DNA from: a virus
Lineage: Duplodnaviria > Caudoviricetes
IMG/VR virus record: IMGVR_UViG_3300036861_000361
Location: 1-63,549 of that record
Direction: 5' to 3' (one strand)
Length of the DNA stretch: 63,549 nucleotides
The notes beneath the pieces were generated by a model, which saw only the letters and a program-made list of their open reading frames with translations, was not told the DNA's origin and searched no databases. A program made the position numbers and the translations under genes. Below are positions 1 through 59,771 of this stretch, piece by piece. The number at the start of each line of letters is the position of its first letter. Positions within the stretch are counted from its first letter, which is position 1.

Positions 1-121
1 TATCAAACGCAGAAGTCCATTCCCAGCATTGAGTCAAGGGATTAACAACAACTTTAGAAAAAATTCTAGTCAGTTCTTCTGTAGAAAGATGATCGACTAT
101 CAGGTATTCTGTGTTTGGCAT
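1..121 (-). CDS. HNH-family endonuclease, N-terminal part (runs off window start)
   Basis: Manual translation MPNTEYLIVDHLSTEELTRIFSKVVVNPLTQCWEWTSAFD aligns with the N-terminus of HNH 1878..2390 (EYLTVPHL...RIFSKI...CWE). Confidence 0.8.
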   Translation of the reverse strand, partial: MPNTEYLIVDHLSTEELTRIFSKVVVNPLTQCWEWTSAFD

Positions 122-123
122 GG

Positions 124-196
124 TCTGAAACTTAGCCTTTCAGATTGTGTTTGAGCCGTTGAGACGCTATCACGTTTTGGCGGCTCGTTTATTATA
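124..196 (-). promoter_or_regulatory. HNH leader: -10 box, conserved hairpin and RBS-covering hairpin
   Basis: TATAAT at 196-191 on minus; stem GAGCCGTT(153-160)/GGCGGCTC(179-186); stem TCTGAAA(124-130)/TTTCAGA(138-144) just before ATG. Confidence 0.55.
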
Positions 197-200
197 ACCT

Positions 201-1895
201 ATGACTTACGACTTGAGTATCATAATTCCCGCGAGAAACGAGGTCTACTATGAGATAGACCTATTGGCAAACACTGTCGCAAATGTTCTTGAAAATACGA
301 GTGACAGAACTGAAGTAATTTGTATTTTAGACGGATACCATCCCCCACAGCCTTTACCTGTCAGTCCTCGCGTTACCGTTATTCACCACAGCAAAAGTAT
401 TGGTCAAAGGGCCGCAACCAACGAAGGGGCGCGAATCTCCAGAGCCAAGTATGTTTGCAAGTTAGATGCCCATAGCGCGATTGGGAAAGGCTTTGATGAG
501 ATAATGATGGCGGATATGCAGCATCATTGGACGATGGTTCCATTGCAATATAACCTACTTTGTTATGAGTGGAAGTGCAAGAAGTGCGGCTGGATCAAAG
601 ACCAGTCACCGAAGCCCCAGAAGTGTGCCAAGTGCGACTCACAATTTCTGAAGCAAGTCACCATCTGGAAACCCCGCGACGGCAAGGAAGGCCGACGCAA
701 CACACCTACTCACTCATGGCGTTTCGACAGCAACCTTGAGTTTCAATACTGGGGTCAATTTGCCTCGGATAAGAATTATTGTGACAAGCATAAGATTCTT
801 TATCGTCCCGAGCAGCAGGGTGACATACACGACACCATGAGTCTCCTTGGTGCATGTTGGATGATGGAGCGGGAGCGGTATTGGGAATTGGATGGGTTAG
901 ATGAGCGTATGGGATCATGGGGTCAGATGGGGACGGAGTTGGCGCTAAAAACGTGGCTCTCAGGTGGCGAGTTGAAAGTGAATAAGAAGACGTGGTTTGC
1001 TCACTTCTTCCGCGTCGGTGGTATTGGCTTCCCCTATGAGGGTGGTGGTCACAAGGAACGTGCGATGGCGAGGTGCAGAGAAATCTGGTTGAAAGACCAA
1101 TGGCCCAAGGCTGTTCATCCGCTGTCATGGCTCATCAAGAAGTTTGCGCCGGTGCCGGATTGGCCTGACGTGAAACCAACCAAGACAGCGTTGTACTATA
1201 CCTGCAACTCCCACGATGAGACTCTGGAATTGGCTGCCCGCAACAACTTGAAAGCTGCAACTAATGGTCACGAACTTGGTTGTGTCGCTCGTCAGCGTAC
1301 TGAGTTCGGTGATTGGAGCATTATAGTTGATCGTGAGAAGTCCGGCACTACGATGCACTATCAGATACTGGAGGGATTGCGCCGGTCAACAGCCAAGTAC
1401 GTGTTCCTGTGCGAGAGTGATGTGTTTTATCACCCATCCCATTTCGACTTCACGCCCCCCGACGATTCAGTGATCTACTACAATACCAACGTATGGCGCA
1501 TCCGCTATAGCGACGGCCACGCAGTCCGCACTGACGACTTGCAACAAGTAAGTGGCATCTGTGCCAATCGTGAGTTGCTGCTCGACCACTACCGTCGCCG
1601 CATCGAAATGATCCAGGCCAATGGTGACGTGTTCGACGTGAAGTGCATGGCCTATGAACCTGGCACGCGGGGCAAGTTTGGTGACGAAAAGATAGCCAAC
1701 TGGCAGTCACCATATCCCAACATTGATGTCACCGGACATGGGCAGACGTTGACCAAGCCGAAATTCTCTGTAGACGAATTCCGCAACAAGAAATTTGCGC
1801 AGGGTTGGCAGGAGACGGACGAGGAAATTCCGGGTTGGGGCAAACTTAGCGGTCGGATTCAGGAGTTTCTTATTGGCCTAGCTGGCGAGTCTTAG
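201..1895 (+). CDS. Two-domain glycosyltransferase: GT-A/ppGalNAc-T-like domain with CxxC..CxxC insert, plus second GT-A-like domain
   Basis: SIIIPARNE, KLDAH (DxH), WGQMGTELALKTWLSGG..FAHFFR; second domain YVFLCESDVFYHP. Confidence 0.85.
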   Translation: MTYDLSIIIPARNEVYYEIDLLANTVANVLENTSDRTEVICILDGYHPPQPLPVSPRVTVIHHSKSIGQRAATNEGARISRAKYVCKLDAHSAIGKGFDEIMMADMQHHWTMVPLQYNLLCYEWKCKKCGWIKDQSPKPQKCAKCDSQFLKQVTIWKPRDGKEGRRNTPTHSWRFDSNLEFQYWGQFASDKNYCDKHKILYRPEQQGDIHDTMSLLGACWMMERERYWELDGLDERMGSWGQMGTELALKTWLSGGELKVNKKTWFAHFFRVGGIGFPYEGGGHKERAMARCREIWLKDQWPKAVHPLSWLIKKFAPVPDWPDVKPTKTALYYTCNSHDETLELAARNNLKAATNGHELGCVARQRTEFGDWSIIVDREKSGTTMHYQILEGLRRSTAKYVFLCESDVFYHPSHFDFTPPDDSVIYYNTNVWRIRYSDGHAVRTDDLQQVSGICANRELLLDHYRRRIEMIQANGDVFDVKCMAYEPGTRGKFGDEKIANWQSPYPNIDVTGHGQTLTKPKFSVDEFRNKKFAQGWQETDEEIPGWGKLSGRIQEFLIGLAGES

Positions 1896-2390
1896 GCTCT
1901 CTCGACAGGGTCGAGGCGGTCTACGCGACTCAATTTCTAGCTGGCATGGGATGCAACGCCGCCGCGAGCGACCCTTTGAATGCCTGTTAGGTTCCGCGGG
2001 TAATGGGTGTCCGTTCACGCAATGAGTCTTCTTTGCGTTAATAGCTATTGGGCTATTTCCTCGAAGGCAATTTTCTTTTGTTGTCACTAAGTTTAAGTGC
2101 GCAGGGTTACAACATCGGGGGTTGCTGCATACAACGTGGTCTAATTCTAGCCAGTTATCTTTAATCTCTCCACGTTTTCTGCGTTGGAGTGGTTGTACTG
2201 CCCAAGCGTAAAGCAGTCGATGTAGTAGTTCTGTCCGGCCCTTATGGCCCACCTTGCCGTAACCTTGGCGATTTAGATTGGTAAACCGCTCCCAACACCC
2301 AGTCTTCCTATTGATATGGATTTTAGAAAAGATTCTTTTTATTTGTTTTGTGTTAAGATGCGGAACGGTGAGATACTCTTTGTCAGTCAA
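1878..2390 (-). CDS. Free-standing HNH homing endonuclease
   Basis: GYG..HR..ELDH..C.N..CCNPAHL..EN and KTHCVNGH tail; probable TTG start at 2390 after GGAGG. Confidence 0.88.
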   Translation of the reverse strand: MTDKEYLTVPHLNTKQIKRIFSKIHINRKTGCWERFTNLNRQGYGKVGHKGRTELLHRLLYAWAVQPLQRRKRGEIKDNWLELDHVVCSNPRCCNPAHLNLVTTKENCLRGNSPIAINAKKTHCVNGHPLPAEPNRHSKGRSRRRCIPCQLEIESRRPPRPCRESLRLAS

Positions 2391-2396
2391 TGGCGT

Positions 2397-2475
2397 AACC
2401 TCCTGCAAGGTTTCGGTGTTGATGAGAGCCGTTTGGGAACTATTTTCTTGGGCGGCTCGTCAAACTATTGTAGCA
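2397..2475 (-). promoter_or_regulatory. HNH leader: extended -10, conserved hairpin and RBS-covering hairpin
   Basis: TGCTACAAT (2475-2467); stem GAGCCGTT(2426-2433)/GGCGGCTC(2451-2458); AACCT/AGGTT stem over GGAGG. Confidence 0.55.
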
Positions 2476-2640: not shown

Positions 2641-3033
2641 ATGAGTGAAGAATGCTTGGATGAAATTACGGAGCGGTCGTCAAGCACTGTGACGGTCAGC
2701 TTCTTTGACGAGGATGGCAATGCTGTCACTCCCGATGCTGCCACCTATCGCATTGATGTCCCCGTATCTCGCACCAGCATTCTCCCGGCCACAACGTTTC
2801 CATCACTTAGTACAGCGGTTGACTTGGAAATCACTTCTGACCAGAATCGTGTTGTTAAGGAACGCCAGCCCTCCGAGGTGCATGAAGTGACGATTGAATT
2901 CGATTACACTGCTATCAGTGGCCCAAAGCACGGCACTGCTCGTTACCGTTATCGCATCATCAACCTTTACGGCGTGACCACTGTGCCGAGCGCATCAGTG
3001 AGTCCGTCCAGTTCAACCAGTCCGTCAGTGTGA
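2641..3033 (+). CDS. Probable virion protein with C-terminal Ser/Pro tag
   Basis: Beta-rich 130 aa ending [16 protein letters not shown]; upstream of portal. Confidence 0.6.
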   Translation: MSEECLDEITERSSSTVTVSFFDEDGNAVTPDAATYRIDVPVSRTSILPATTFPSLSTAVDLEITSDQNRVVKERQPSEVHEVTIEFDYTAISGPKHGTARYRYRIINLYGVTTVPSASVSPSSSTSPSV

Positions 3034-7119: not shown

Positions 7120-8169
7120 ATGAGATCACTTATTCCATTAGTTCAGGAGTTGTCGCCCGCGTCTCTGACTGTAGTGGCGCAAACAATATCCCAAGGCAAC
7201 ACCGGCAGGCTGCGGTGGCCCATATTCTTTCCACGACAGAATGTGGATTCCATCGACCTGCGGGAAGTCACCACTATCGACTTTCGCCCGGTGTCGGACA
7301 GACGCGAGTGGAACTCCCGAGGCCGGTTGATTCCCGATATCACCCCGCCAATCCGCGAGCTGAGCATGATCCCGGTTGAGGGTTACTACAAGTGGGATGA
7401 ATACGAGATTCAGAAACTCAGCGAGCGGGCACTGGCGAATTCGGAGATCATCAACCAGATTCTCGGTCGCTCCATTCCTGGCAAGGTGGCCCAGATTGTT
7501 GAAGCCAACGACCGCCGTATCGAGGTGGATGCGTTCACCGCTTGGGCAACCGGCACCAACGTTGCCAAGAACCCGCAGACAGGTCAGACCCACACGGTCA
7601 GCTACGGCTTCCCGAGTGATCGTCTTACTACAGCGGGCACCGCGTGGGACGATCCCGGTGAGAACGCCTATGACCTACTTATCAGCTTCCTTGAAGACGC
7701 CGCTGACAAGATTGGCCCAGTGACAGGCGTGGTGCTCAGAACCGCGCTGCATCGCGCTATCCATGCCGACGCGCCCAATGGCCCACTTGGCACAATCATC
7801 CCGCGTGGACGGTTGGCTGAAGCAGTCAGCGACACCCTCGGCATCCCGTTCAACTTCTTCCTGTTCGATGACACGCTCGACGTGTTCAACGACGGCGGCA
7901 CCGCAACCACATCGACCAACGTGTGGCCTGCTGGCTACATTGCGGCAGTCCCATCCGGTGGCGTGGTTGGACGCACGGTGTTTGCTCCCGTGGTACGCGC
8001 AATGGAAATTGCTCGTGCCTCAGGCAGCCCCGGCATCGATCAGCGTGGGCAGACTGTCTACTACCAGGAATCGGTGATGGGCCGCGACTTGACTGTAGAA
8101 GTGCAGGTCAACCCGTTCACCATTCCCAATGAGCAAAAATTGAGAGTGGAAAACACACTCGTCACCTAA
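7120..8169 (+). CDS. Major capsid protein (lambda gpE-like layout)
   Basis: 349 aa, AAGGAG RBS, IFFP..RRIE..W motifs, follows decoration gene. Confidence 0.8.
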   Translation: MRSLIPLVQELSPASLTVVAQTISQGNTGRLRWPIFFPRQNVDSIDLREVTTIDFRPVSDRREWNSRGRLIPDITPPIRELSMIPVEGYYKWDEYEIQKLSERALANSEIINQILGRSIPGKVAQIVEANDRRIEVDAFTAWATGTNVAKNPQTGQTHTVSYGFPSDRLTTAGTAWDDPGENAYDLLISFLEDAADKIGPVTGVVLRTALHRAIHADAPNGPLGTIIPRGRLAEAVSDTLGIPFNFFLFDDTLDVFNDGGTATTSTNVWPAGYIAAVPSGGVVGRTVFAPVVRAMEIARASGSPGIDQRGQTVYYQESVMGRDLTVEVQVNPFTIPNEQKLRVENTLVT

Positions 8170-8180
8170 AGGAGCAACGC

Positions 8181-8384
8181 ATGAAGGACAATCGTGAGAT
8201 CGTACATGGTATCAGGGTAATGGTTGCCGCTCCCGAGGGACGGAAAACGCCACAGTCCAAGACGTTCTCCTCTGGCATGGAGGATGAACTGGCGGCTGAG
8301 TTCACTGATGCACAGTTGAAGGCAATGATGCAGCGCGGTGACATCACCGGCAACTGGAAATCGACCAAGGGCAAAGCCAAATAA
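8181..8384 (+). CDS. Hypothetical head-region protein
   Basis: AAGGAG RBS after capsid gene. Confidence 0.65.
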   Translation: MKDNREIVHGIRVMVAAPEGRKTPQSKTFSSGMEDELAAEFTDAQLKAMMQRGDITGNWKSTKGKAK

Positions 8385-8423: not shown

Positions 8424-8855
8424 ATGTGGTTTAGAAAAGAAAACAACCTGTTGATGCGGACGTATTCCAACAGTGGACGGACGTATGGTGCACTGCAACT
8501 GGGGATTGATGCAACAGGCAAGCGCATTGTCATTGGTACTACCACCGACTTGGTGCTGGATGGCAACTTTGCCAATGGCTCTGTATCGGCTTACGGCAAA
8601 GGATCGATAGCACTTGACCCCGCAGGCAGCATGCACGTTGTTGATGCCGATGGTTACTGGCAGACTCCGACGATCACGGCAGCCAGTCCAAGTGTGTCAC
8701 CGTCACATTCGGCATCCCCAAGTCACAGCACCAGCCCGAGTGTTTCACCGTCAACCAGTCCATCGAGAAGCCCGAGTGCGTCGGCAAGTCCGTCTGGGTC
8801 AGCCAGTCCATCCGGATCGGCATCACCCAGTCACTCTGCGAGTCCGAGTGCGTAA
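8424..8855 (+). CDS. Probable virion protein with ~56-aa C-terminal Ser/Pro tract
   Basis: GGAGG RBS; ends [19 protein letters not shown]...SPSHSASPSA. Confidence 0.7.
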   Translation: MWFRKENNLLMRTYSNSGRTYGALQLGIDATGKRIVIGTTTDLVLDGNFANGSVSAYGKGSIALDPAGSMHVVDADGYWQTPTITAASPSVSPSHSASPSHSTSPSVSPSTSPSRSPSASASPSGSASPSGSASPSHSASPSA

Positions 8856-11232: not shown

Positions 11233-12078
11233 ATGAGTCTATTTTCAGGTCAAGGCCCGGTCTTTTACAGTAACCGGAACCCAACAACTGGCCTCCCAAT
11301 CGAGTTTCACTGGTTCGGTAATGCACCGGCGTTCACGCTGGGCCTAGCCACCAACACACTGACTCACAAGGAGTCGTACACCGGCAACCGCACCACGGAC
11401 GCCCGCATCATCACCGAGTTGACTGCCACGGTCGCCATCACAGTCGATGACTTCAAGGAGTCCAACCTGTCGCTTGCAACCTACGGCTCCGGTTCACAAG
11501 TGGCTGCTGGCTCTGTGAGTGGTGAAGTGGTCTCGACGGTTGTACCGACCATTGGTGAGCGGTATGCATTGAAGTCCACTGGCCGCGTGTCCAATGTGGT
11601 GCTCAGTGGTGGCGGCGTAATTTCCGCAACCAAGTATACGGTAGACGCATCCGGTGTCATCGTATTCACCGACATCAGTGGCATCTCCGCCCCAGTCACT
11701 GCAGCCTATGACGAAGCAGCATCTCGCCAGGTCGGTATCTTCAAGACCGCTGCCCCGGAAGTCACCGTGCGGCTGGATGGTCTCAACACCGCCACCACAG
11801 TCAGTGGCGACTTCGAGCGCACTATTGTTGAGGTATTCAAGACCCGCCTCGACCCGGCTGAGAACTTTGGCTTGATCAACGATGAGTTTGGGCAGTTGGT
11901 CATCAACGGGTCGGCCCTAGTGGACACACTCAAGGCAGCCAGTTCACCCACGGGCCAGTTTGCGCGGTTCATCTACCTTGATCCACCGTCACAGACTGTG
12001 CCAAGTGCAAGCGTGAGTCCTTCCGTGAGTCCGAGCGGATCGGTTTCACCGTCACACTCCGCGTCTCCTTCAGTGTAG
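11233..12078 (+). CDS. Major tail (tube) protein with C-terminal Ser/Pro tag
   Basis: FSGQGPV..FGNAP..HKES tail-tube motifs; ends [26 protein letters not shown]. Confidence 0.85.
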   Translation: MSLFSGQGPVFYSNRNPTTGLPIEFHWFGNAPAFTLGLATNTLTHKESYTGNRTTDARIITELTATVAITVDDFKESNLSLATYGSGSQVAAGSVSGEVVSTVVPTIGERYALKSTGRVSNVVLSGGGVISATKYTVDASGVIVFTDISGISAPVTAAYDEAASRQVGIFKTAAPEVTVRLDGLNTATTVSGDFERTIVEVFKTRLDPAENFGLINDEFGQLVINGSALVDTLKAASSPTGQFARFIYLDPPSQTVPSASVSPSVSPSGSVSPSHSASPSV

Positions 12079-13394: not shown

Positions 13395-13418
13395 GCCAGA
13401 GTGCCGGATACAACCGGC

Positions 13419-16400
13419 ATGGCTGACGATACCACACGTTTAATCATTTCCATAGAGACCCTGCTAAAAGGGGTCGATAAAACTCTCGCTGGCTTGTCGC
13501 AAGTCGAGAAGCGTCTGAAGTCTGTCGGCACTGCTATCTCCACTGGCGCAACTGACAAGAGCATTGCGCGAAACCTAGCGGCCCAACAGCGGACAGTGGA
13601 GGCTTTGCAACGGCAACGCAGTGCGGCTCTCATTGCTGAGGAACGCAAACGAATAGCAGCGGTCGAATCTCTCCAAGCGAAACGTAGTGCTGCACTAATT
13701 GCGCAAGAGAAAAAGCAGCAGGCGGATATTCAAACCGTGCAAAGGCGGGCTGCTGCTCAGCAACTCATTGAGAGTCAACGACAGCAGGCTGCTGTTAATT
13801 CGCTTCAGAGACAACGGAGTGCCGCCCTTATTGCTCAGGCGCGACAAGCAGAACAACTTGCAGCAAGACAAGCCAAAGCATCTTTCGCTGCGCTCCCCCA
13901 AGCAGATGCCCACGTACAGGCATTTCGCAAAATAGAAGCGGCTAACACAGCGGCGGCGGCATCTGCTAATGCACTCAATGCTCGCCTGCAATCCCTCGGT
14001 AACGGGCTGCGCTCACTGGGTCAAGGTGCGGCATCAATCGGCATTGGCCTGACCGTTGCGTTGACCGTGCCACTGGTGGCGTTTGGCAAGGCAGGACTGG
14101 ATGCGGCTGTCACCATTGACTCGCTGAGACGCGGACTCATTGCCATCGTCGGCTCATCCGCCGAGGCCGAAGTCCAACTAAAGCGGCTCACGGAAATCGC
14201 CAAACTTCCTGGTATCGGTTTCGAGGAAGCAATACAGGGGTCGATTCGATTACAAGCGGTTGGTTTCAGTGCCAAGGATGCCGAGAAGGCACTGATTGAG
14301 TTCAGCAATGCCATCGCGCTGACAGGTGGTGGCCGTGAGGAACTCAGCCGAGTCACGGTGCAGTTGGGCCAGTTGGCGGCCAAGGGCAAAGTGCTGAGTC
14401 AGGACTTGCGACCCATCATCGAGGCTGCTCCGGCTGTGGGTCGCGCTCTCAAGGCAGCGTTCGGTACAGTCAATGCCGATGACATCGCCAACCTCACTAC
14501 CAACTCCCGCGAATTCCTCGACGTGCTCACCAAGGAACTGGAGAAGTTGCCTCGCGTTGCTGGTGGTGCTAAGAATGCTTTTGAGAACTTCCGTGACACA
14601 ATATTTCGAGCCAGTGCGGCAATCGGTGATGCGCTCATTCCAGTACTGAGTAACCTCATTGATGTAATCGGCCCTGCAGTCACGCAGTTGGCCCAGTCGT
14701 TCCGTGAACTGCCAACACCAATACAGACGACTCTTGTGGCTATCGGTGCATTCGCAGCCGTACTTGGCCCAACCCTGTTTATATTTGGTCAGTTCACTAC
14801 TGGCATAGGCCGCACCATAGTTTCCCTTGCACAACTCAATGCTCTCGGACTGCTGCCTACCATTGCCAACTTCCGTCTGCTTGGTCAGGTGATGGCGGGA
14901 ACAGCATCCATTGCAGGGTCAGCCGGGCTATCGACGCTCATTGCTGCTGCGCCGTGGCTGGCCTTGGCTGTGGGTGTGGTTGCTGCGACAGTCGCTTTTG
15001 ATGCATGGCTGCACAAGAAACGGGAAATAATTAAGGTTGATGTCGAGGCTGCAAAGGCTCGCAATGCCCGGCTTGCCAGCGTTGATACCGAAGTCAAGTT
15101 CCTTCAGGATTTGCAGTCAAAGGTATCCCTCACTGCTGACCAGCAGAAGCGGCTGGAGCAGGCTTATGGCAGTCTCACCGGAGCAGCGAAAGTGCGTGTC
15201 AACGGCATTGAAGATGAAACTGAGAAGTTGAACGCTCTCATTGCCGCCAAGAAGGAGCAAGCCAAGATTGACGCCTTTGCCGCACGAGCCACGCAGGCCG
15301 CACTGGTTGAGAATGTTGTTACTGCACTTGAGAAGCAGACCAAGGCACAAAATGATCTCAACGGCGCAAAGGAACGCACTCTCACCTCGGCAGCCTTCCG
15401 CCGCTCCATTGAAAGTCTGGACATCACTGAGCAACAGACACGTCTGACTGAATTCCAGAACAAGGCTGCTATACAAGCCGAGGCCGCACAAGGAGATTTG
15501 AGCAGGGCGGAATTGGAGACTGGCAAGGCCATCAAGGTTCTCTCCGAGGTCACTGGGGTAAGCGTCAAGTCCCTGTTTGAGCAACTCAAAGCAGCGGGCA
15601 AGACTGAAGCGGAAATTACCCAGCTCCAGAAGGCTATAGATGCGCTGGCTAAGAGTGAGCAGGACGGGCTGGGCGCGGTTGACGATTTTACTAAGGCTCT
15701 CAATGACCAACTCAATGAACTGCTGAAGTTGGGCAAAGCGGCTCAGGACGCTGAAACCAGACGCAAAACAATCATCAGTGGTGCCGCTGCTGAAGCCCGC
15801 GAAGTCTCCGATTCATTTGAAGGCGCAACCAAGTGGATGAAAGCGTTCATTGCCGCCAACCCTGAAATCGGTGAGGCAGTGAAAAAGGAGTTGCAGCTTC
15901 AGGGCAAGTCGCTGGACGAGTTTCTGGAGGACACACTTGGCAAGCGAGACAAACGCGGTGGGGCACTGCGCAATGCTCAGGAACAACTGGCAAAGGCGAT
16001 TGCAGCTGCGGCTCTCTCATCTGCCGAGCAGGAGAACCAGATTGAGCACACCAAGAATGAGCGGCTGTTGCAGGAGAATGAGCATGCGTTCAAGCTGCAG
16101 CTCATCTCCTATCGCCAGTACCTGAACCAGCGTGCCTTTCTCACCAGCAGCAACATCGAATTGGAAATCAGAGAACAGGAGCGAATTGCCACCAATGCGC
16201 TCGCCCAACAGCAGCGGTTTGCAGATAGAGCAGCACGGGCTGGCATACCTGCACCTGAGCGTGTGAAGGCGAAAGCTGGAGCAGTCGAAGCAGAGAAGAT
16301 TGTCATCGAAGCCAACACCAAGATTCTCGCTCTCAGGGCCAAGCAGAAAGCTGACATAACTGAGATTGATCAACTGTTGGCTGAGTCGCAGCGGCAGCAG

Positions 16401-18344
16401 ATTAAGGACATCCGTCAACTGGAAATCGAGTACGCCACGTTGCGCGGTCGCATTGAGGACGCGCTGAACGCAGCCACCGATGAGAAGTTTCGTGAGAGCC
16501 TGTTGCAACTGGGACTGGCCCAAGACGATCTCAACAAACGATTTCAACTGGCAAAGGAAGCTAAGGACGCCGATAAGCAAGCAGAAATTAGTTTGGCCCA
16601 GGCAATTAACCAGCGACACATAGATGCCATCAACGGTATTGTTGATGAAGAGCGAGCCACTAATAAGCTGACTGTGGCACAGGAGTTCATCTCACAGGCC
16701 AAGCAGCGACAAGCCGATTTGGAGAAGCAGATAGCATTCGATGTTGACTTCCGTGGTCTCAAGGAAGAGGAAGCCATTCGGCGTCGGCTGGAAGGCGAGG
16801 AGAAGGTCAGGAACTCGCTGAAGATTGCCAAGGACATCATTCAGGAGACCATTGCGCGTCTTGAGCAACTCGGTCTCACTCCACCAAAGGGGTTGATAGA
16901 TTTTGTCAACGACGTGACGCTCGCCATGAAAGGGTTGGGTGAGTTGTCCTTCGCTGAGCAGTTCCGCTTGGCCCAGCAGGAATTCGACCGGCTCAACGAT
17001 GAGCGCATCGTGAAGATTCAGGACGTTGAGCGGGCAGTGCGCCACCGTGACCTGGCTGAGATTGAAGGGCGCATCCTTATCAAGAAACTCAATGGTGAGT
17101 ATGTGGCTGACCTTGAACGGCAGGCTGAGGTACTCAGGCAGATTGCTGAGAAGTCTGGTCAGCAAGGATTGCTCAAACAGGCTACCGATGCCCAGCAAGC
17201 TGCCAAGGACATTAGAGCAGCTACAGATGAGGTGGCGGATTTCAACATCGCTCTCCGTTCTACTACCATCGACGCTCTCCGTGAAGGCTTCTCACAGTTC
17301 TTCAAAGACCTCACCGACAACACCAAGTCAGCCAAGGAGAAACTGCTCAGCCTGCTTGACAGTGTGCGCAACCGTATCAACGATTTCATTGCCGAGCGGC
17401 TGGCGGACAAATTGATTGAGAGTCTGTTTGGCACTGGCAAAAAGGGCGAAGAGGGTCTGCTGGGTGGTATATTCAACAAGGTGCTGGGAATCGAGCCGGG
17501 GGCGGATACTGCTACGGCAGCGAACACAACGGCCACGGATGCCAACACCGAGGCCATCAATGGATTGACCACTGCATTTGGCGGGCAGGTTGCAGGTGGG
17601 ATAGGAGGGCTGTTTGGTGGTGGCGGTGGGGCAGGCGGCACGGTGGGCCAGGTTGCAGGAATTGCTGATAGCATACTCGGTAGTCTCGGCATCAGTGTTC
17701 CAGGTCTTGGAGAGACAGCACAAAAAGGTTCGACTGTAATCGAGGCACTGAACATCGTCTCTGACTGGCTGTCGAAGTTGTCAACTGCGGTGAAGGACTT
17801 GACCGATGCAGTCAACCAGAACACACAGGCGCAGGGTGGCAGTAGTTTACAACAAGGGATTACCGCGTTATTCGGTGGTGGAGGTGGTGAGGCAACTGGA
17901 GATATCATACCCGCTGCTCCCAAGGGCAGAATCATCCGTGTAGCCGAAGCTGGCTTTGATGAGGCCGTGCTCACCACCGACCCGAAGCATGCGCTCAGAC
18001 AAGCACGGATACTGCACGAGTTTCTCAGCCGCACCCATGGGCTGATGGGACGGTTTCGAGCAGTGCCTGAATTCGCTGAAGGTGGACTGCTCAGTGCGCG
18101 AGATGCCGAGGCCAACATGCTGCACTCGATTGCTGCCGGTCGCGTTGGCTCACCCAGCTTGCCTGACAGCGTAGTAGCTGGTGGTGGCAACCAAGTAACA
18201 CCTATCAACTTCCGCAACATCAACTTGTTCGACCGCAGGCGGCTGGTTGGCGATCACATCCGCTCAGCCGAGGGTGCAAGAGACATTATGAATATCATCT
18301 CCGAGAATTCGGACGAGATTGGCAGACGTATAGGAGTCAAATAG
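13419..18344 (+). CDS. Tape measure protein
   Basis: ~1640 aa Ala/Gln-rich helical, tape-measure domain QLGQLAAKGKVLSQDL; ATG 13419 or GTG 13401. Confidence 0.92.
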   Translation: MADDTTRLIISIETLLKGVDKTLAGLSQVEKRLKSVGTAISTGATDKSIARNLAAQQRTVEALQRQRSAALIAEERKRIAAVESLQAKRSAALIAQEKKQQADIQTVQRRAAAQQLIESQRQQAAVNSLQRQRSAALIAQARQAEQLAARQAKASFAALPQADAHVQAFRKIEAANTAAAASANALNARLQSLGNGLRSLGQGAASIGIGLTVALTVPLVAFGKAGLDAAVTIDSLRRGLIAIVGSSAEAEVQLKRLTEIAKLPGIGFEEAIQGSIRLQAVGFSAKDAEKALIEFSNAIALTGGGREELSRVTVQLGQLAAKGKVLSQDLRPIIEAAPAVGRALKAAFGTVNADDIANLTTNSREFLDVLTKELEKLPRVAGGAKNAFENFRDTIFRASAAIGDALIPVLSNLIDVIGPAVTQLAQSFRELPTPIQTTLVAIGAFAAVLGPTLFIFGQFTTGIGRTIVSLAQLNALGLLPTIANFRLLGQVMAGTASIAGSAGLSTLIAAAPWLALAVGVVAATVAFDAWLHKKREIIKVDVEAAKARNARLASVDTEVKFLQDLQSKVSLTADQQKRLEQAYGSLTGAAKVRVNGIEDETEKLNALIAAKKEQAKIDAFAARATQAALVENVVTALEKQTKAQNDLNGAKERTLTSAAFRRSIESLDITEQQTRLTEFQNKAAIQAEAAQGDLSRAELETGKAIKVLSEVTGVSVKSLFEQLKAAGKTEAEITQLQKAIDALAKSEQDGLGAVDDFTKALNDQLNELLKLGKAAQDAETRRKTIISGAAAEAREVSDSFEGATKWMKAFIAANPEIGEAVKKELQLQGKSLDEFLEDTLGKRDKRGGALRNAQEQLAKAIAAAALSSAEQENQIEHTKNERLLQENEHAFKLQLISYRQYLNQRAFLTSSNIELEIREQERIATNALAQQQRFADRAARAGIPAPERVKAKAGAVEAEKIVIEANTKILALRAKQKADITEIDQLLAESQRQQIKDIRQLEIEYATLRGRIEDALNAATDEKFRESLLQLGLAQDDLNKRFQLAKEAKDADKQAEISLAQAINQRHIDAINGIVDEERATNKLTVAQEFISQAKQRQADLEKQIAFDVDFRGLKEEEAIRRRLEGEEKVRNSLKIAKDIIQETIARLEQLGLTPPKGLIDFVNDVTLAMKGLGELSFAEQFRLAQQEFDRLNDERIVKIQDVERAVRHRDLAEIEGRILIKKLNGEYVADLERQAEVLRQIAEKSGQQGLLKQATDAQQAAKDIRAATDEVADFNIALRSTTIDALREGFSQFFKDLTDNTKSAKEKLLSLLDSVRNRINDFIAERLADKLIESLFGTGKKGEEGLLGGIFNKVLGIEPGADTATAANTTATDANTEAINGLTTAFGGQVAGGIGGLFGGGGGAGGTVGQVAGIADSILGSLGISVPGLGETAQKGSTVIEALNIVSDWLSKLSTAVKDLTDAVNQNTQAQGGSSLQQGITALFGGGGGEATGDIIPAAPKGRIIRVAEAGFDEAVLTTDPKHALRQARILHEFLSRTHGLMGRFRAVPEFAEGGLLSARDAEANMLHSIAAGRVGSPSLPDSVVAGGGNQVTPINFRNINLFDRRRLVGDHIRSAEGARDIMNIISENSDEIGRRIGVK

Positions 18345-18756: not shown

Positions 18757-19577
18757 TGGATCAATTTTACCTCTATGCTTTCCGAGACAGAGACCGTGAC
18801 TACCTATTCACTGGTGTGGGCCATGCGATCATCTTCGATGGTGCCGTGTATGCTCCAGTTAGCATCTCGCACTCCCCGCCCACATTCTCCTCCGACCCAT
18901 CGCAGGCCCGCGTCACCGTGCATCTGCGCGACAACCTGCTGGTAGCAATGAACTACATTTCACACCCGCCACCAAGCAAGACTGAGTTGGTAATCTACGA
19001 GGTATTGGAAACATCCGTGGTTGGCAACCAGCTTCAAGTGGAGCAGTTTGAACCGCACTGGTCAGGACAAGTCGTGCGGATAGCATGGCGGGATGGATTC
19101 AGGTCAGTGGATATGTCCTGTCGCACGGCCCACGAGATTCACTTCAGCCGGGAGACACTCACAGAGTCACTGAATCCACTATGCCGCTTCCACATTGGCG
19201 ATGGTCGCTGCCCGGTCAACATCGAGGACTTCAAAGAGACTGTGCAAGTGACAGGTATATCGGATGACATTTCTGAGCCAACTGTGACAGTGACAGGTTT
19301 AGCCCAACTCGACACCTACTACGCAGCAGGCATGATACGCACTGCCGATGACGATTGGCGCACAGTGGATAGGTGCGTGGCCGGTGTGTTGACACTATCA
19401 CGGGCATTTCCATCCACTGCGCTGCAAATCGGTGATGACGTAGATGTATTCGCCGGTGATGACCTCACGCTGGAGACTTGTGCAGTGAAGTTTGGCACAC
19501 CAACGAACTCAGGTGAAGCATGGGGCGGCTGGAAGCTGACACCTAATCGAGACTTTCAGAGGTTTGGGATTAAATGA
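18756..19577 (+). CDS. Tail tip/hub protein (DUF2163/BR0599-like)
   Basis: CRFHIGDGRCPV and GDDLTLETCAVKF..N..WGG motifs. Confidence 0.75.
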   Translation: MDQFYLYAFRDRDRDYLFTGVGHAIIFDGAVYAPVSISHSPPTFSSDPSQARVTVHLRDNLLVAMNYISHPPPSKTELVIYEVLETSVVGNQLQVEQFEPHWSGQVVRIAWRDGFRSVDMSCRTAHEIHFSRETLTESLNPLCRFHIGDGRCPVNIEDFKETVQVTGISDDISEPTVTVTGLAQLDTYYAAGMIRTADDDWRTVDRCVAGVLTLSRAFPSTALQIGDDVDVFAGDDLTLETCAVKFGTPTNSGEAWGGWKLTPNRDFQRFGIK

Positions 19578-22414
19578 GCGCGCAATTAGCTCTCCTTGCA
19601 CTTCAGGCATACCTGGGGATTGTCTTTCAAAAACGGCCCCATAAATTTACGTTTCAGGAGTTGCTCGATTCCAACAAAGGTGATGAGACTCGACCTATCT
19701 CATATATTCGAGGTCGCTGGAAGACTACACCGCAACGCATCTGGCTGGGAGACTTCACCGCCCATGCTGTTGAGCGAGATTCCGAGTGGACGGATTTCGT
19801 AATCGGAGGGCTGATTGGTGGAGTCGTTGGCGGGCTGGCTCTAGCTGCACTGCTTGATACTATAACTGTCGGCTATCGTTATAACGTCGGTCAGGGATTT
19901 GCACTGACCTGGGGGCCAATCAATCGGGTGCATCAGGTGTATGTGCAAGACTTAGCCTGTGCAGTCGCTCCAACGGTAGACAATGCTGGTGGCTCTCTCC
20001 TGCTCGACTTCCCCACGGCCTTCGGTGGCGACCAGCCTCCCGGTGGCGGTGGCATTTACGGCGTGTGCGATGTGATACCGGGGACGTACACGCAGGCACG
20101 CAACCCATACCTGCAAAGTGTCGAAGGCAACATCCCTGCGTTGCATGGAGTTGCTGCACTCATCATCCGTGGTGAGTCTGGTGCCCCATCATCAGGCTAC
20201 TTCTCAGCGAACGTCTTGGAACTCCGCGAGTGGCAGGTGGAGCTGATGGCATGGCCGGACGTACTGGGCACAGGTGATGCCGAACTTCCCGATCAATCAT
20301 TCAACCGCATCCACGCCATGTACGAGTGGGCCACGGCAGCAGATTATGGCGCACAGTATCCACTGGAGAAGATTCACCTGCCATCGTGGCGAGCAGCAGC
20401 AGCCCAGTGCTTTACTGATGGGCTGGGCTTCAGTGGGGAAATCAATACTGGCGGCAACGTAGGTGAAGTGTTTGACCAGTTGCGAGCGTCAGTGGATGCC
20501 GAGGTCTATGAGCACCCACGCGATGGCCTCAAGATCAAGCTCATTCGCAAAGACTACTCAATTCCATCGCTGCAGGTGCTGAGTCAGGCCAACTGCAACT
20601 CGGTCGAAGAGTACACACCCGGTGACTATGCGGACACTTTCAATCGTGTGACGTTGCCGTATATCAATGCAGAGAACAACTACCAGCCACGACCGGCAGT
20701 CTACGAAGACCCGGCGAACTTTCAAATACAGCGGCGGGTTGCCAGCAAGGAAATCAACTACCCCGGTGTGGCGTCCGCTGAGCTGGCCCAGAAACTGGTG
20801 ACACGCGATGGGCGGGTGTTGGCCCAACCGTTTCCCCCACTGGTACTGAATTCAGGAGAAGTTGGCCGCAATCTCTACCCCGGTGAAGTTTACAAGTTCC
20901 AATGGTCAGACCCGCTCATTGAGAAGATATTCAGGGTGCATGCGCGGACACCATCGGTCAGTTACGAAGGGGAGAAGAATTTCCGGCTGACTGCTACTGA
21001 GGATCAATACTCGATTGGCATGAGCGTGTTTGGTGCGCCGGAAGAGTCCGATGCAACCAATCCCGGCACCATCTGGGCCACTGCGCCACCGTCAGCGGCA
21101 TGGGATGATGCTCGGATTCCACCGGCTGGGCTGGAGATGTTCATCACGACCGGGCTGGCTGGGACTCTGGACACTTTCATTCGTGGGGCAGTGCTGTTCG
21201 ATGCTTACGCTGGAGGCCAGTACGCTCGCATCTATGTGACACCACCGGGCGGGTCGCAAACACTAACGCCGATTCATTTGTCGCCCGATGCCAATGACCA
21301 GGCGACCTTCATCTGGCCTGCACTGATTGCTGGCACATATCAGTTCTGTGTGCAGACCTTTGCTGCTGGCCCACCATTTGCTACCAATGGAGTCAAGGTG
21401 TGCGAGACGATTGCTGCCTCGTCATTCTCGGTCAGTCCGAGTCACAGCGTTAGTCCAAGCGTATCACCATCTATCAGTCCCAGCTCGTCTGTAAGTCCTA
21501 GTGAAAGCCCTTCGGTTAGTCCCAGTATGAGTATGAGTCCAAGTGGCAGCCAGAGTCCGTCTGCATCCCAAAGTCCATCATCTTCACAATCCTTGTCTGT
21601 GTCGCCTTCTGGTTCTATCAGCGCCTCAATATCACCGTCTGCTTCACAGTCTCCGTCAAGTTCAGCCTCTAGTTCAGTGTCACCTTCGGCTAGTATGAGT
21701 CCATCTTCATCAGTATCGCCTTCCGTGCCCACAGGAATTACATTTGTAGCGGCAGGCGCTTTAGGCACATCTACATCAGGAACAAGTCTGTCTGTTGTAG
21801 CCCCAACGCTGGCTGCTGACGACATAATGGTTTGCTGCATTATAAATAAATCGGTCACTGCCAATGTAATCAGTCCGCCGGATGGCACTTGGACAGCAGT
21901 TATCGCTCAGGAGGTCAATAACTGTACCTTGGCAGCAGACGATTTTGAGTATGCGGTATTTTGGAAACGGGCAGGAGTTGGAGATTCAGGCGCGACGTTT
22001 AACTTCACTAAAGCATCGCAAGATTTTGTGTTGTTCGCCGGAGTGATTGGAGCATGGCGAGGAGCAGTTGCAAGTGGTAGCCCCTTGGACGCAACTGCGG
22101 CAGTGAGAACAAATACTGCTGCCCAGACTGACAATGTCAGTTTCCCGGCATACGATCCTACATCAACCGACGTACACGTGATCTACATAGCTTTCTACGG
22201 AAATGATTTGGTAGCGTTCTCAGCGGCAATGTCAAATGACACCAACCCTGATTGTACTACACGGTGGAGCGTGGAATCTTCAATTGGCAATGATTGCGCG
22301 ATTGCCTGCACTTCAGGTGATAACGATGGTTCCAGTATTGCGTCAAGAACATGGGCCAGTAATGCTACCACTGATGCCGGTAATACAGGCATTGTATTCG
22401 CACTGATACCATAA
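19574..22414 (+). CDS. Central tail tip/host-specificity protein with internal ~100-aa Ser/Pro linker and C-terminal beta domain
   Basis: 946 aa, KLIRKDY, FNRVTLPY; SPS tract ~21417-21729. Confidence 0.75.
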   Translation: MSAQLALLALQAYLGIVFQKRPHKFTFQELLDSNKGDETRPISYIRGRWKTTPQRIWLGDFTAHAVERDSEWTDFVIGGLIGGVVGGLALAALLDTITVGYRYNVGQGFALTWGPINRVHQVYVQDLACAVAPTVDNAGGSLLLDFPTAFGGDQPPGGGGIYGVCDVIPGTYTQARNPYLQSVEGNIPALHGVAALIIRGESGAPSSGYFSANVLELREWQVELMAWPDVLGTGDAELPDQSFNRIHAMYEWATAADYGAQYPLEKIHLPSWRAAAAQCFTDGLGFSGEINTGGNVGEVFDQLRASVDAEVYEHPRDGLKIKLIRKDYSIPSLQVLSQANCNSVEEYTPGDYADTFNRVTLPYINAENNYQPRPAVYEDPANFQIQRRVASKEINYPGVASAELAQKLVTRDGRVLAQPFPPLVLNSGEVGRNLYPGEVYKFQWSDPLIEKIFRVHARTPSVSYEGEKNFRLTATEDQYSIGMSVFGAPEESDATNPGTIWATAPPSAAWDDARIPPAGLEMFITTGLAGTLDTFIRGAVLFDAYAGGQYARIYVTPPGGSQTLTPIHLSPDANDQATFIWPALIAGTYQFCVQTFAAGPPFATNGVKVCETIAASSFSVSPSHSVSPSVSPSISPSSSVSPSESPSVSPSMSMSPSGSQSPSASQSPSSSQSLSVSPSGSISASISPSASQSPSSSASSSVSPSASMSPSSSVSPSVPTGITFVAAGALGTSTSGTSLSVVAPTLAADDIMVCCIINKSVTANVISPPDGTWTAVIAQEVNNCTLAADDFEYAVFWKRAGVGDSGATFNFTKASQDFVLFAGVIGAWRGAVASGSPLDATAAVRTNTAAQTDNVSFPAYDPTSTDVHVIYIAFYGNDLVAFSAAMSNDTNPDCTTRWSVESSIGNDCAIACTSGDNDGSSIASRTWASNATTDAGNTGIVFALIP

Positions 22415-24562
22415 ATGGCAACTTACGAAGAAACTGTTTTAGCTGACACTCCAGCGTTGTATTACCGCCTTGACATGGTGGGCGCGGCGGTAAATGGTGA
22501 CACAATTCCTGACCTATCCGGCAACAACCTGCACGGCACTTTGGAGTTTATACAACCCGGTACTACTCCCGAACCTTACGGCTATCCTTCGCCGATAGAG
22601 ACGGACGAAGGCAGCCGGGAATTCAGAGGATTCAACCAAGGCACTTTTTCCAGCACCAGAGTTGCACGAATTGGACGGGCATCTGATTCCCAGATAGAAC
22701 CCGATGGGGACTTCGCTCTTGAGGGATGGCTACGACTACCAAATGCTACAGGCGGATCAGCGGCCTTCGGAACCATTATGCAGGTAATGTTTGGGCGAAC
22801 AGGTTCAATATTCGCTTACATAGACCACTTCAATTTCATAGCAGGTTGCGTTATAGACACGGCTGGAACTGGCTGGCTGATTGTATCGCCTACCCCGGTA
22901 GAATATGGAGTTTCCTACCATACGGTAATTGAACGACTCGGTAATGCTTTGATTCTCAAGATAAACGGAGTTTTGCAAAACTTCACCACTATTACGAGCG
23001 GTCTGCCGAATCGCATGGACGCGCCTGGCACGTTTCTAAATGCGTCAGGGGGAATTCAACAGCTTCCGGCATTCTTTGTACATCCTTACCAGATTGCCCA
23101 GATGGATGCTCGCTATGATGAGATAGCATTTTACAACGCGGCGCTTGGCTCAAGAGCAGCAGCGCACTATGAAGCAGCGTTGAATACGCTGGAACTACGT
23201 GGAACGTGTAACATCCGCACGTCTGTGCAGCTTGATGGCAGTGATGACCCAGACCCGGTTGCTTATCCGTTTCGTCACAATTGGAGTGAGCCGGTAATCG
23301 AGCGTCTGCGGTGGCGCACCTCGCTGTTCAAGCCGGAGAACGGTTCGACTGAGTTTGCACGGCAACGGTCAGCACTGCGCCGGTCGGTCGAATATCAACA
23401 CCTGCTCTACAACGAGAACTTGCGGCGGCAATTCGAGGCCCGGTCGTTTGGTGGGCGCAAGTCGCTAGTGCAGTTTGAGCCGGACAAGGTGCAGGTGGCA
23501 TCGCTACCCGCCGCTACTACAGCCGTCACCTTCGACACCGTTCATATGGACTTCGAAGTGGGCCATTATGCACTCATCTGGCAGGATGATGACACCTATG
23601 AGTACAAGCTACTGACAGCAGTGGATGACAGTGGAGTACAGTGGGATGGCAACCTGACTCGTGACTATGTGAACCCGTGGTTGAAACCGGCGCGCATTGC
23701 TCGCCTACCCGCATCACAGGACATGGACGCAGAGACCGACACCATTGGTAATGCCTCGACTATCTATGAGTACCAGCTGGAAGATGAACCACTCAACTCG
23801 AGACGCATCACGCCATTTGTGGAGACACTAACCTACCGTGACCGAGAAGTATTCGACCTGCGCGAATGGCAGGGACATGATTACAGTGAGATTCCAAAGA
23901 TTGAGTTTGCAGCCGACCGGGCCGAGCTTGACTTTGGCACTGGGGTGGTCTCCCAGAAGCAGTATCGCTGGGGTGCTGAGCAAATCACGCCATACAACAT
24001 GAACCTGCAGGGGAGGCCACTGATAGCCAAGTATCTCGGTTGGTTGTACCGGAGAGCAGGCATGAACACGCCGTTCTGGATGCCCACATTCAGGCAGGAC
24101 TTGGAACCACTGTTGGGCGACACGCTTGACCTGACTGTGCGCGGCCACGAGTACACGCAACTTTATGCGCCTGCTGATAATCGTATCGACCTGGCATTTG
24201 TGTACTTTGACAGCACGGTGATTATGCGACGGATTGAAGCGGCAGTGGCGGATGGCATGAATGACTTGTTGACACTCGACGCAGCGGTGCCTACGTTCAC
24301 CAACCTGCGCTGGCTGTGCTTCCTGCGCCGGGTGATTCTCAGCAGTGATGACCTGGAGATTGCGTGGGAGACAGACAACGTGGTGCAAGTGGCTTTCGCA
24401 GTCAGGGACGCACCACTGGACTGGGCACTGGGGAGTCCTTCAGTAAGTCCTTCACCATCACCGTCGCTGTCACTTTCACCATCGCCCAGCCACTCAGCAT
24501 CTGGATCGGTGTCGCCAAGCGGTAGCGCAAGTCCTAGTCACAGCGCAAGTCCCTCGGTATAA
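22415..24562 (+). CDS. Tail structural protein with N-terminal LamG/ConA-like domain and C-terminal Ser/Pro tag
   Basis: YYRLD..DLSGNNLHG..DEIAFYNAAL; NWSEPVIERLRW; PFWMP; terminal SPS tract. Confidence 0.75.
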   Translation: MATYEETVLADTPALYYRLDMVGAAVNGDTIPDLSGNNLHGTLEFIQPGTTPEPYGYPSPIETDEGSREFRGFNQGTFSSTRVARIGRASDSQIEPDGDFALEGWLRLPNATGGSAAFGTIMQVMFGRTGSIFAYIDHFNFIAGCVIDTAGTGWLIVSPTPVEYGVSYHTVIERLGNALILKINGVLQNFTTITSGLPNRMDAPGTFLNASGGIQQLPAFFVHPYQIAQMDARYDEIAFYNAALGSRAAAHYEAALNTLELRGTCNIRTSVQLDGSDDPDPVAYPFRHNWSEPVIERLRWRTSLFKPENGSTEFARQRSALRRSVEYQHLLYNENLRRQFEARSFGGRKSLVQFEPDKVQVASLPAATTAVTFDTVHMDFEVGHYALIWQDDDTYEYKLLTAVDDSGVQWDGNLTRDYVNPWLKPARIARLPASQDMDAETDTIGNASTIYEYQLEDEPLNSRRITPFVETLTYRDREVFDLREWQGHDYSEIPKIEFAADRAELDFGTGVVSQKQYRWGAEQITPYNMNLQGRPLIAKYLGWLYRRAGMNTPFWMPTFRQDLEPLLGDTLDLTVRGHEYTQLYAPADNRIDLAFVYFDSTVIMRRIEAAVADGMNDLLTLDAAVPTFTNLRWLCFLRRVILSSDDLEIAWETDNVVQVAFAVRDAPLDWALGSPSVSPSPSPSLSLSPSPSHSASGSVSPSGSASPSHSASPSV

Positions 24563-59552: not shown

Positions 59553-59771
59553 ATGACCTTTACCGAAGCCCTCGACGCCGTATTCAAGGACAACGACTGC
59601 ATCACCCGCGCCACCTGGGCCAACCGCAACATCTTCTGTGCCCTTGAGGAAGGTCGTCTCTGCATCAAGGGTTTTGCCAGCGAGGGTCAGGATGATGGTC
59701 TCTATCACCCGTGGGTAGTCACCGAACAGGACTTCTTTGCGTATGATTGGGAGGTGCTGAGTGATGCCTAA
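59553..59771 (+). CDS. DUF2829-family (Tad2-like) protein
   Basis: MTFTEAL..ITRATW..W....QDFFAYDWEV. Confidence 0.7.
   Translation: MTFTEALDAVFKDNDCITRATWANRNIFCALEEGRLCIKGFASEGQDDGLYHPWVVTEQDFFAYDWEVLSDA

Follow-up and report, generated by a model that had tools for sequence, protein, structure and literature searches.

The stretch of DNA analysed here (the window) is the whole IMG/VR record IMGVR_UViG_3300036861_000361, which has 63,549 bases, an estimated completeness of 95% and the gene order of a tailed phage. Close to its start lies the gene of a soluble two-domain glycosyltransferase (GT), the subject of this report, situated among the late genes between those for the terminase and the portal (Table 1). 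The start given to this 564-residue protein is right, because all of the homologues aligned to it (34 of 34) begin at a common N-terminus, M-x-Y-x-LS-h-h-IPARNE. The record's source gene call, P0001, has 463 amino acids (aa) and starts at M102, so that the first 101 residues including the DxH metal-binding motif (window 201-503) are omitted, and therefore automated annotation of this GT family may miss the catalytic half of the enzyme. No hydrophobic segment was found in the 564-residue protein (the maximum Kyte-Doolittle mean over 19 residues was 0.72).

The closest solved relatives of the N-terminal domain (N-domain) are the polypeptide N-acetylgalactosaminyltransferases (ppGalNAc-Ts), by a clear margin and far beyond chance. 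Pfam placed Glycos_transf_2 on aa 6-111 (E=1.6e-16) and, weakly, Glyco_transf_7C on aa 214-263 (E=0.047); PF00535 was detected in all of the 35 close family members and a weak PF02709 in 15 of them at E<=1. When the single sequence was compared with the PDB by phmmer, mouse GalNAc-T1 was found at E=5.5e-6 and the best 11 matches were all ppGalNAc-Ts. With a profile of the 35 members the value for ppGalNAc-T1 was E=1.8e-11, and ranks 1-16 among the distinct sequences all went to ppGalNAc-Ts, one of them, deposited as 'Glycosyl transferase', being Toxoplasma GalNAc-T3 according to the structure searches; generic GT2 enzymes followed from E=3.3e-4. The AlphaFold2 model of the GT had a mean predicted local distance difference test score (pLDDT) of 88.1. 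With this model, ranks 1-25 in Foldseek were all taken by ppGalNAc-Ts (from E=2.8e-15), and in VIA-align, an exhaustive comparison with 48,161 chains, the best match was 8v9q with Z 26.3 and an rmsd (root mean square deviation) of 2.8 over 268 residues (model range 1..324), then 8uhv with Z 25.1. The next enzymes were K4 chondroitin polymerase (K4CP; Z 17.8 across both domains, rmsd 15.4) and AvpGT, WrtF and SpsA (Z 17.6-17.5). Sequence identity between the N-domain and the ppGalNAc-Ts is 17-21%. A PHROGs search gave no family, the N-terminal matches in NCBIfam were all sub-threshold (for example MftF, 28 bits with a cutoff of 280), and in Pfam no lectin family, such as a ricin-type (CBM13) domain, was found at E<=1. 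We call the enzyme GT27-like rather than a member because the lectin domain and a membrane anchor are absent and one motif residue differs.

A sequence-only reading of this DNA had proposed the resemblance to GT27 from short motifs, all of which are where it placed them: SIIIPARNE (aa 6-14, nucleotides 216-242), LDAH, WGQMG...FAHFFR, CKKC and CAKC. The N-domain was mapped onto full-length human GalNAc-T2 (6nqt_A, natural numbering) by a hidden Markov model alignment, and the numbering was checked by counting to Phe280, Trp282, Trp331, His359, Phe361 and Arg362 as named in PMC4432651. Conservation was counted in the 35 close family members and in 150 wider N-domain representatives at 50% identity. 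The Mn2+ ligands are Asp224, His226 and His359 in GalNAc-T2 and Asp209, His211 and His344 in mouse T1 according to PMC4432651 and PMC4202792; the former source describes Trp331 as the mobile catalytic Trp, Phe280, Trp282 and Phe361 as residues of peptide recognition, and Arg362-Ser373 as the catalytic flexible loop. The three ligands align to D89, H91 and H268 of the phage enzyme, Trp331 to W240, Glu337 of the Gal/GalNAc-T motif to E246, and Phe361 and Arg362, the latter at the start of the flexible loop, to F270 and R271, each of these being kept in 35 of 35 members. Invariant in the family alignment are D89, H91, W240, G241, E246, H268, F270, R271 and four cysteines. Phe280 has its counterpart in F181 (F in 27 and Y in 8 of the 35). 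Glu334, in the same Gal/GalNAc-T motif, aligns to M243, a position with M or Q in all 35 members, E in 17 of the 150 representatives and, family-wide, any of Q, M, V and E, and Trp282 has no aligned counterpart, as there is a two-residue insertion at that place. Of the motif parallel drawn by the sequence-only reading, the DxH, the Trp, the last Glu and the HxFR thus stood, and the first Glu of WGGENxE, being M or Q here, did not. Of the 150 representatives, 142 have D89 and H91 and 143 have H268, and the others show gaps there; therefore the wider N-domain family has DxH throughout, not DxD. After HFFR, at the position of the Arg362-Ser373 loop, aa 271-290 are the only part of the N-domain model with low confidence (block means of 62 and 69, aa 281-283 being below 50) and are likely to be flexible.

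The four invariant cysteines belong to a CKKC and CAKC insert, also pointed out before, which lies within an extended hairpin located between the halves of the GT-A fold. It gave weak rubredoxin-like and Zn-ribbon matches in Pfam and NCBIfam, and all four cysteines are found in 56 of the 150 representatives. The four-Cys ribbon is not there in the paralog of the GT encoded elsewhere in the window. As a guess, the insert could have a role in acceptor binding.

The second GT-A-like domain that had been suggested for the C-terminal part is seen in the predicted fold. Modelled alone from 40 sequences, the C-terminal domain (C-domain) reached a pLDDT of 95.7 and a predicted template modelling score of 0.92. 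Its structural matches form a flat list (Z 12.7-9.8), which mixes GT-A enzymes (Z 12.7-12.0, with TarS, SpsA, a Leptospira GT and K4CP at 12.7-12.4) and nucleotidyltransferases of the IspD, GlmU and MobA types (Z 11.8-10); the best value in Foldseek was E 1.3e-6. The C-domain profile had one insignificant match in the PDB (E=0.027), the best Pfam value among the 40 sequences was 0.055, and none of the 259 stand-alone homologues (about 215-250 aa) is named. The domain starts with a YYTCN(S/T)H strand-turn, which resembles the IPxxN with which GT-A enzymes begin. Neither E405 nor D407 varies over the 40 fused and stand-alone sequences, and the E-x-D comes where a hydrophobic strand ends (aa 75-80 in the model of the C-domain), in the position of the GT-A DxD. 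Further invariant polar residues, in C-domain numbering, are H89, Q124, S126, E161, R203 and N204. We read the C-domain as a putative second transferase and give less weight to its being a nucleotidyltransferase or a binding module. In three records (G028, G045 and G057, behind loci L129, L148 and L161), 2-3 extra C-domain-like ORFs (open reading frames) of 218-243 aa were observed besides the fused one, and the C-domain family has therefore expanded within single phages.

The two domains are linked across the family. We inspected 80 viral loci found via the C-domain, some of which are copies of the same contig region, and an orthologous N-type domain (38-67% identity) was present in all of them: in the same frame in 66, in an upstream gene, directly adjacent or close, in 8, and in a downstream gene in 6. 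The linkage survives both fission and changes of gene order, which argues for a joint function.

Six proteins of the late region carry (SPSxSx)n tags, which are C-terminal in four of them, internal in one and a stalk of 460 residues in another, with S making up about 0.5 and P about 0.15 of the residues. They agree with the 'SPS peptides' that the sequence-only reading had named for a donor screen, and the GT family co-occurs with them. Among 11 capsid-related loci, the GT and the tags occur together in 8, the tags being on the same three proteins, and the 3 most distant loci are devoid of both; a search of the whole records of these three (25-64% complete) gave no match. Ser-alternating tags were detected within about 8 kb in 66 of the 80 GT loci, each of the 207 runs having the same strand as the GT. 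A complex prediction for the full GT and the tagged tail (64 residues) of the 143-aa protein gave no answer (score 0.00) and has no bearing on binding.

The co-occurrence was also approached from the other side, by running a degenerate tag DNA pattern over the viral collection; Ser before Pro was fixed as AGY in the pattern, so that phages with similar codon usage are favoured. The pattern had 6 matches in the window and none in 100 shuffles. The sample consisted of 65 records, which stand for 66 of the 80 pattern loci (L096-L175) among the matches listed, two loci sharing one record. Counted raw, the GT was found in 7 of these 65 records, and in 1 of the 8 that are at least 90% complete. The pattern is unspecific, as it also finds repeats of the (PS)n, (PT)n and SR types, and it is these that the seven complete records without the GT all carry. 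We therefore re-classified the records by a rule set after the data had been seen (Ser at alternate positions over at least 20 residues, Pro 8-27%, Arg at most 12%), and among the same listed matches the records with Ser-alternating tags had the GT in 7 of 26 cases versus 0 of 39 for those with other S/P repeats, or, in records at least 19% complete, in 5 of 7 versus 0 of 24 (Fisher p=1.2e-4). We regard the reverse test as supportive only. The (PS)n and (PT)n linkers themselves, some of which are longer than 100 residues and some of which come from giant-virus bins, occur commonly in viral contigs, with the GT in 0 of 39 records among the matches listed.

The GT belongs to a cluster of glycosylation genes that continues across the record's ends. 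One of its genes encodes a paralogous DxH GT-A domain followed by a middle region and a Methyltransf_24 domain. The paralog has 33% identity to the N-domain over 331 columns (E=7e-32) with the DAH, the third His and the Glu kept, and its type is found in 64 of the 80 GT loci. Its middle region (aa ~321-395) had a sub-threshold Pfam match, DnaJ-like_C11_C, at 26.4 bits (cutoff 27.1). The epimerase of the cluster has TIGR01179 galE as its best NCBIfam match (126.5 bits, below the cutoff of 262.3), and the stand-alone methyltransferase has a homologue in 60 of the 80 GT loci. A further neighbour of 301 aa (61150..62055) has no family in Pfam or NCBIfam and a best PDB match of E=0.33 only, and an earlier label 'GT4' for this protein was for this reason not adopted.

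Table 1. Positions in the window of the glycosyltransferase (GT), its parts, the tagged proteins and neighbouring genes.
Feature	Position	Strand	Basis or remark
564-aa soluble two-domain GT	201..1895	+	ORF, ATG start, TAG stop; open and unique
N-terminal GT-A catalytic domain, ppGalNAc-T-like (aa 1-~322)	201..1166	+	Pfam, PDB profile, structure comparison
LDAH, DxH metal-binding motif (D89, H91; aa 88-91)	462..473	+	aligned to D224/H226; 35/35
CKKC-x12-CAKC insert (C126, C129, C142, C145; aa 126-129, 142-145)	576..635	+	four Cys invariant
W240-G-x-x-G-x-E246 ... H268-F-F270-R271, Gal/GalNAc-T-like motif (aa 240-271)	918..1013	+	GalNAc-T2 alignment
Likely flexible loop after HFFR (aa 271-290)	1011..1070	+	model pLDDT; position of Arg362-Ser373 loop
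C-terminal second GT-A-fold domain (aa 326-564), without known family	1176..1892	+	predicted structure
C-E-S-D, E405-x-D407, candidate DxD-type metal/nucleotide-sugar motif	1410..1421	+	E, D invariant 40/40
HNH endonuclease gene	1878..2408	-	Pfam HNH_3 E=1.3e-4; overlaps last 6 GT codons, same codon register
Ser/Pro tag, C-terminus of 130-aa protein (2641..3033)	2980..3030	+	kept in 8/8 GT-bearing relatives
Capsid-E-like gene	7120..8169		Pfam scan
57-aa (SPSxSx)n tag, C-terminus of 143-aa protein (8424..8855)	8682..8852	+	
26-aa tag, C-terminus of 281-aa putative tail tube (11233..12078)	11998..12075	+	
1647-aa protein, tape-measure size	13401..18344		
106-aa internal Ser/Pro tract of 946-aa protein (19574..22414)	21419..21736	+	
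45-aa tag, C-terminus of 715-aa protein (22415..24562)	24425..24559	+	
799-aa terminase-sized protein with intein	50866..53265	+	Pfam Intein_splicing E=5.9e-12, aa 252-551
460-aa Ser/Pro stalk of 749-aa fibre-like protein (54084..56333)	54783..56162	+	
Paralogous DxH GT-A domain, middle region and Methyltransf_24 domain	57401..59359	+	Pfam, alignment
Nicotinamide adenine dinucleotide-dependent sugar-nucleotide epimerase/dehydratase	59761..60813	+	Pfam Epimerase 2.3e-48
Endonuclease VII-type gene inside glycosylation cluster	62052..62615	+	Pfam 1.1e-13
Stand-alone Methyltransf_24 methyltransferase	62724..63365	+	Pfam 6.1e-16

Three elements of selfish-nuclease type are situated around the GT block, namely the HNH gene, the endonuclease VII-type gene and the intein. 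By coordinates, the GT ends on a TAG stop (1893-1895) that reads on the opposite strand as CTA, a codon of the HNH gene. In other phages an HNH homologue is nested antisense within the GT frame, and the frame stays open and encodes proteins of 727-767 aa (L009, L049, L057, L058 and L061). In L009 (3670-5961; the same contig as L015) the nested gene lies in the interdomain linker, and in the other four loci it occupies a variable N-domain loop near query residues 190-208. In the four cases where the frame around the HNH gene is a fused one, HNH and GT codons share the register; therefore stop codons of the GT would have to be the HNH codons TTA, CTA or TCA, and the nested HNH looks like a homing-endonuclease gene selected to leave its host gene unbroken. 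Among the 120 best GT-family matches, 16 have 737-770 aa and may be such HNH-nested forms.

The GT family is large and restricted to phages. At 90% identity, 3934 clusters make up the full-length family, many of them on contigs of 62-68 kb, and the wider N-domain family has at least 1060 clusters at 50% identity (E<=1e-3), with proteins of 161-1352 aa that are nearly all viral. In the ESM Atlas the nearest clusters were viral GT2 only. Among deposited phages the N-domain had five weak matches of generic GT2 type at E<=1 (E 0.02-0.8), none of them in a mycobacteriophage, and the first 20 kb of the window gave nothing in a megablast search of the phage collection. A pattern-seeded scan of about 185,579 species genomes yielded one relative (L095), on a 38.8-kb contig of a Peribacteria-labelled candidate-phylum metagenome-assembled genome. 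It has the paralog-N, N and C modules in a row (7995-10447 and 12933-13480) and Ser-alternating tags 2.5 kb downstream; relatives of the capsid, portal and terminase of the window phage were not found in 18 kb of this contig. In a limited library, literature searches on phage GT27-type enzymes and Ser-tag glycosylation found no description of the GT family.

We lean towards the view that the GT is a soluble, cytoplasmic and bifunctional enzyme which O-glycosylates the Ser tags on the phage's own late proteins, with the C-domain adding a second sugar, and we hold this to be somewhat probable. In the cytoplasm of the infected cell, late in infection, the N-domain would bind Mn2+ and a uridine diphosphate (UDP)-sugar via D89, H91 and H268. 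The sugar is perhaps an N-acetylhexosamine or a hexose, and its supplier could be the neighbouring 4-epimerase-like enzyme. The loop 271-290 would close over the donor, F270 and F181 would contact the Pro residues of the tag as in GalNAc-T2, and the sugar would be transferred to Ser of the extended SPSxSx tags. Candidate acceptors are the 130-aa and 143-aa proteins, the 281-aa putative tail tube, the two large tail-region proteins and the 749-aa fibre-like protein. The C-domain, with its own E-x-D, would then most likely add a further sugar to the same chain, so that one polypeptide carries out two steps, and the paralogous GT-methyltransferase fusion and the stand-alone methyltransferase may extend and methylate the glycan. 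The analysis itself shows the fold, the nearest relatives, the conserved residues of catalytic type, the linkage of the two modules and their co-occurrence with the tags; the acceptor, the donor, the order of the steps and the GT domain that starts the chain are inferred.

Several observations weigh against this view. The parallel with GT27 is incomplete, as the Glu334 position has M or Q, Trp282 is without a counterpart and the lectin domain is missing, and therefore acceptor recognition may differ. In Foldseek the two-domain polymerase K4CP follows the ppGalNAc-Ts at rank 26 with an E-value (5.7e-14) near theirs. The genome has at least three GT-A domains, and the enzyme that touches the peptide need not be this GT. 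The raw reverse count of 7 in 65 speaks, at face value, against a link between GT and tags. No tag was found in the flanks examined of 14 of the 80 GT loci, and 19 of the 26 tag records have no GT, all but two of these 19 being at most 16% complete and those two carrying SSSP-type repeats. The class boundaries of the reverse test are post hoc and related phages are not independent, so that the association is weaker than the raw counts suggest; likewise, the three GT-less capsid relatives are 25-64% complete, form one outgroup and may reflect a single evolutionary event. Tblastn of the GT against 50,697 deposited phage records gave no relative at E<=1e-3 that could serve as an experimental anchor.

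It is also conceivable, although unlikely, that the GT only extends a glycan and that the chain is started by the paralog or by the 301-aa protein. The paralog is a second DxH GT-A domain with the same metal ligands and its type is common in the loci, several records have extra C-domain-like ORFs as would be expected of glycan-extending enzymes, and Trp282, a residue of peptide recognition, lacks an aligned counterpart. However, every solved relative of this fold type with Z >25 is an enzyme that acts directly on peptides, and there are conserved counterparts in the phage enzyme for Phe361 and Phe280, by which GalNAc-T2 recognises peptides containing Pro (PMC4432651). In addition, it is the orthologous N-type domain, and not just the paralog, that occurs at every one of the 80 loci.

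That the GT modifies a polymer of the host envelope (teichoic acid, lipopolysaccharide O-antigen or capsule) like the prophage enzymes of TarP or Gtr type, and that the tags are unrelated linkers, seems quite improbable to us. The N-terminal half is a generic GT2 in Pfam, the nominal best structural matches of the C-domain include TarS and TarP, and the full model aligns over both domains to polysaccharide polymerases (K4CP, and heparosan synthase with Z 17.1). S/P-rich linkers are moreover common in viral contigs without the GT (39 of 65 records among the matches listed). Yet the GT is tied to the Ser-alternating tags and not to these (PS)n and (PT)n linkers, its gene lies within the late structural block, and the family is near-absent from cellular genomes. 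No lipid-carrier partner accompanies it; a membrane-bound Gtr-type role was rejected because of the missing membrane segment and the late-block position. The sequence-only reading had named unrelated GT2 polysaccharide enzymes, as best structural matches, as the outcome that would speak against it, and the opposite was found: the ppGalNAc-Ts stand above all polysaccharide enzymes by about 8 Z.

As for the C-domain, we give a low probability to its being a nucleotidyltransferase that forms the sugar nucleotide, or a non-catalytic, substrate-binding stand-in for the lectin domain. Such roles would be in line with the mixed list of structural matches and with the lack of a family assignment at the sequence level, and in ppGalNAc-Ts the C-terminal domain is indeed a non-catalytic one that guides the acceptor (PMC4432651, PMC4202792). 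In contrast, the invariant E-x-D stands where GT-A enzymes have their DxD, and the many further invariant polar residues suggest an active site over a simple binding surface. IspD and GlmU enzymes have a Gly-rich N-terminal loop, which the C-domain sequence does not. Finally, phage GTs often act on DNA (PMC12619734, citing Pyle et al. 2024), but glycosylation of hypermodified DNA bases is scarcely credible here and was rejected, as structural genes surround this one, the fold points to enzymes acting on peptides and a non-exhaustive Pfam scan of ten replication and packaging proteins found no gene of base-hydroxymethylase or thymidylate-synthase type.

The proposed glycosylation of the phage's own tagged proteins by a two-domain enzyme has parallels in several known systems, of which the ppGalNAc-Ts (CAZy GT27: mouse T1, 1xhb/8v9q; human T2, 2ffu/4d0t; Toxoplasma T3, 8uhv) are closest in fold and profile. 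Enzymes of GT27 use UDP-GalNAc as the donor and act with retention on Ser/Thr of polypeptides. The shared features are the DxH and the third His, the Trp and the last Glu of WGGENxE, the H-x-F-R with its loop, the Phe280 counterpart, the PF00535 and weak PF02709 matches, and candidate acceptors that are Ser- and Pro-rich repeats. The phage GT differs in having the inserted four-Cys ribbon, tags with Ser only, and no membrane anchor, being cytoplasmic and not Golgi-resident, whereas GT27 enzymes are type II membrane proteins of the secretory pathway. It also has a second GT-A domain in place of the C-terminal ricin-type (CBM13) lectin domain of the ppGalNAc-Ts (PMC4202792, PMC4432651). Two tandem GT-A domains in one soluble polypeptide are likewise found in the K4 chondroitin polymerase of E. 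coli (2z86) and the heparosan synthase of Pasteurella (8viw). These are, however, polysaccharide polymerases, their sequence similarity to the GT covers only the first ~110 residues (E=0.002), and at an rmsd of 15-16 A it is the single domains that match and not their arrangement.

In the mycobacteriophage Che8 and its relatives, phage GTs are reported to place O-glycans at the C-termini of the capsid and the tail tube (PMC12619734, PMC11256854 and PMC13445384, citing Freeman et al. 2023, Cell Host Microbe 31:1216). Similarly, the tags here stand at the C-termini of the putative tail tube and other late proteins. Unlike in those phages, the candidate acceptor is modular, Ser-alternating and up to hundreds of residues long, the enzymes are of the DxH, GT27-like type, and no homology between the enzymes was detectable in the tblastn search of deposited records. 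The serine-rich repeat proteins (SRRPs) of Gram-positive bacteria have alternating Ser with mostly A, V or T between, and are O-glycosylated in the cytoplasm before export; according to the same source, the GtfA-GtfB pair starts the chain with GlcNAc and several GTs (GtfC, dGT1), some of them bifunctional, extend it stepwise (PMC6973325). The (SPSxSx)n tags are likewise alternating in Ser, and the proposed glycosylation would also be cytoplasmic, stepwise, completed before assembly and dependent on a bifunctional GT. The candidate initiator differs in being a GT-A DxH enzyme, GtfA and GtfB having the GT-B fold, the tags have regular Pro, and the carriers are phage structural proteins. Pfam scans of the cluster proteins, with no dedicated search made, found neither GtfA-GtfB/DUF1975 nor accessory Sec. 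It seems that the GT is a variant of two known kinds, the GT27-type enzymes and phage virion glycosylation.

Peptide O-glycosylation by DxH GT-A enzymes is treated as a hallmark of the eukaryotic secretory pathway. The large phage family shares the architecture of the active site and is a testable candidate for a prokaryotic or viral counterpart of mucin-type initiation. A bolder proposal, that the N-domain family is a sister lineage of GT27 in viruses of prokaryotes with the same direct transfer to Ser in Pro-containing repeats, and that mucin-type initiation is widespread, is tentative and we are more inclined to doubt it than to adopt it. If it were true, mucin-type initiation would not be a eukaryotic invention, uncultivated phages would coat their heads, tails and fibres via modular tags, and dense, processive glycosylation of the repeats would be driven by the Zn ribbon together with the second GT-A domain instead of a lectin domain.

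The fusion or adjacency of the N- and C-domains at every locus examined provides an experimental handle on the order of the steps, and the soluble, membrane-free enzyme could be tried together with its tag for glycoengineering in bacteria. In case the GT does glycosylate the late proteins, virion glycosylation, documented so far only in mycobacteriophages, would extend to many environmental phages, and this bears on phage adsorption, sticking to surfaces and evasion of recognition.

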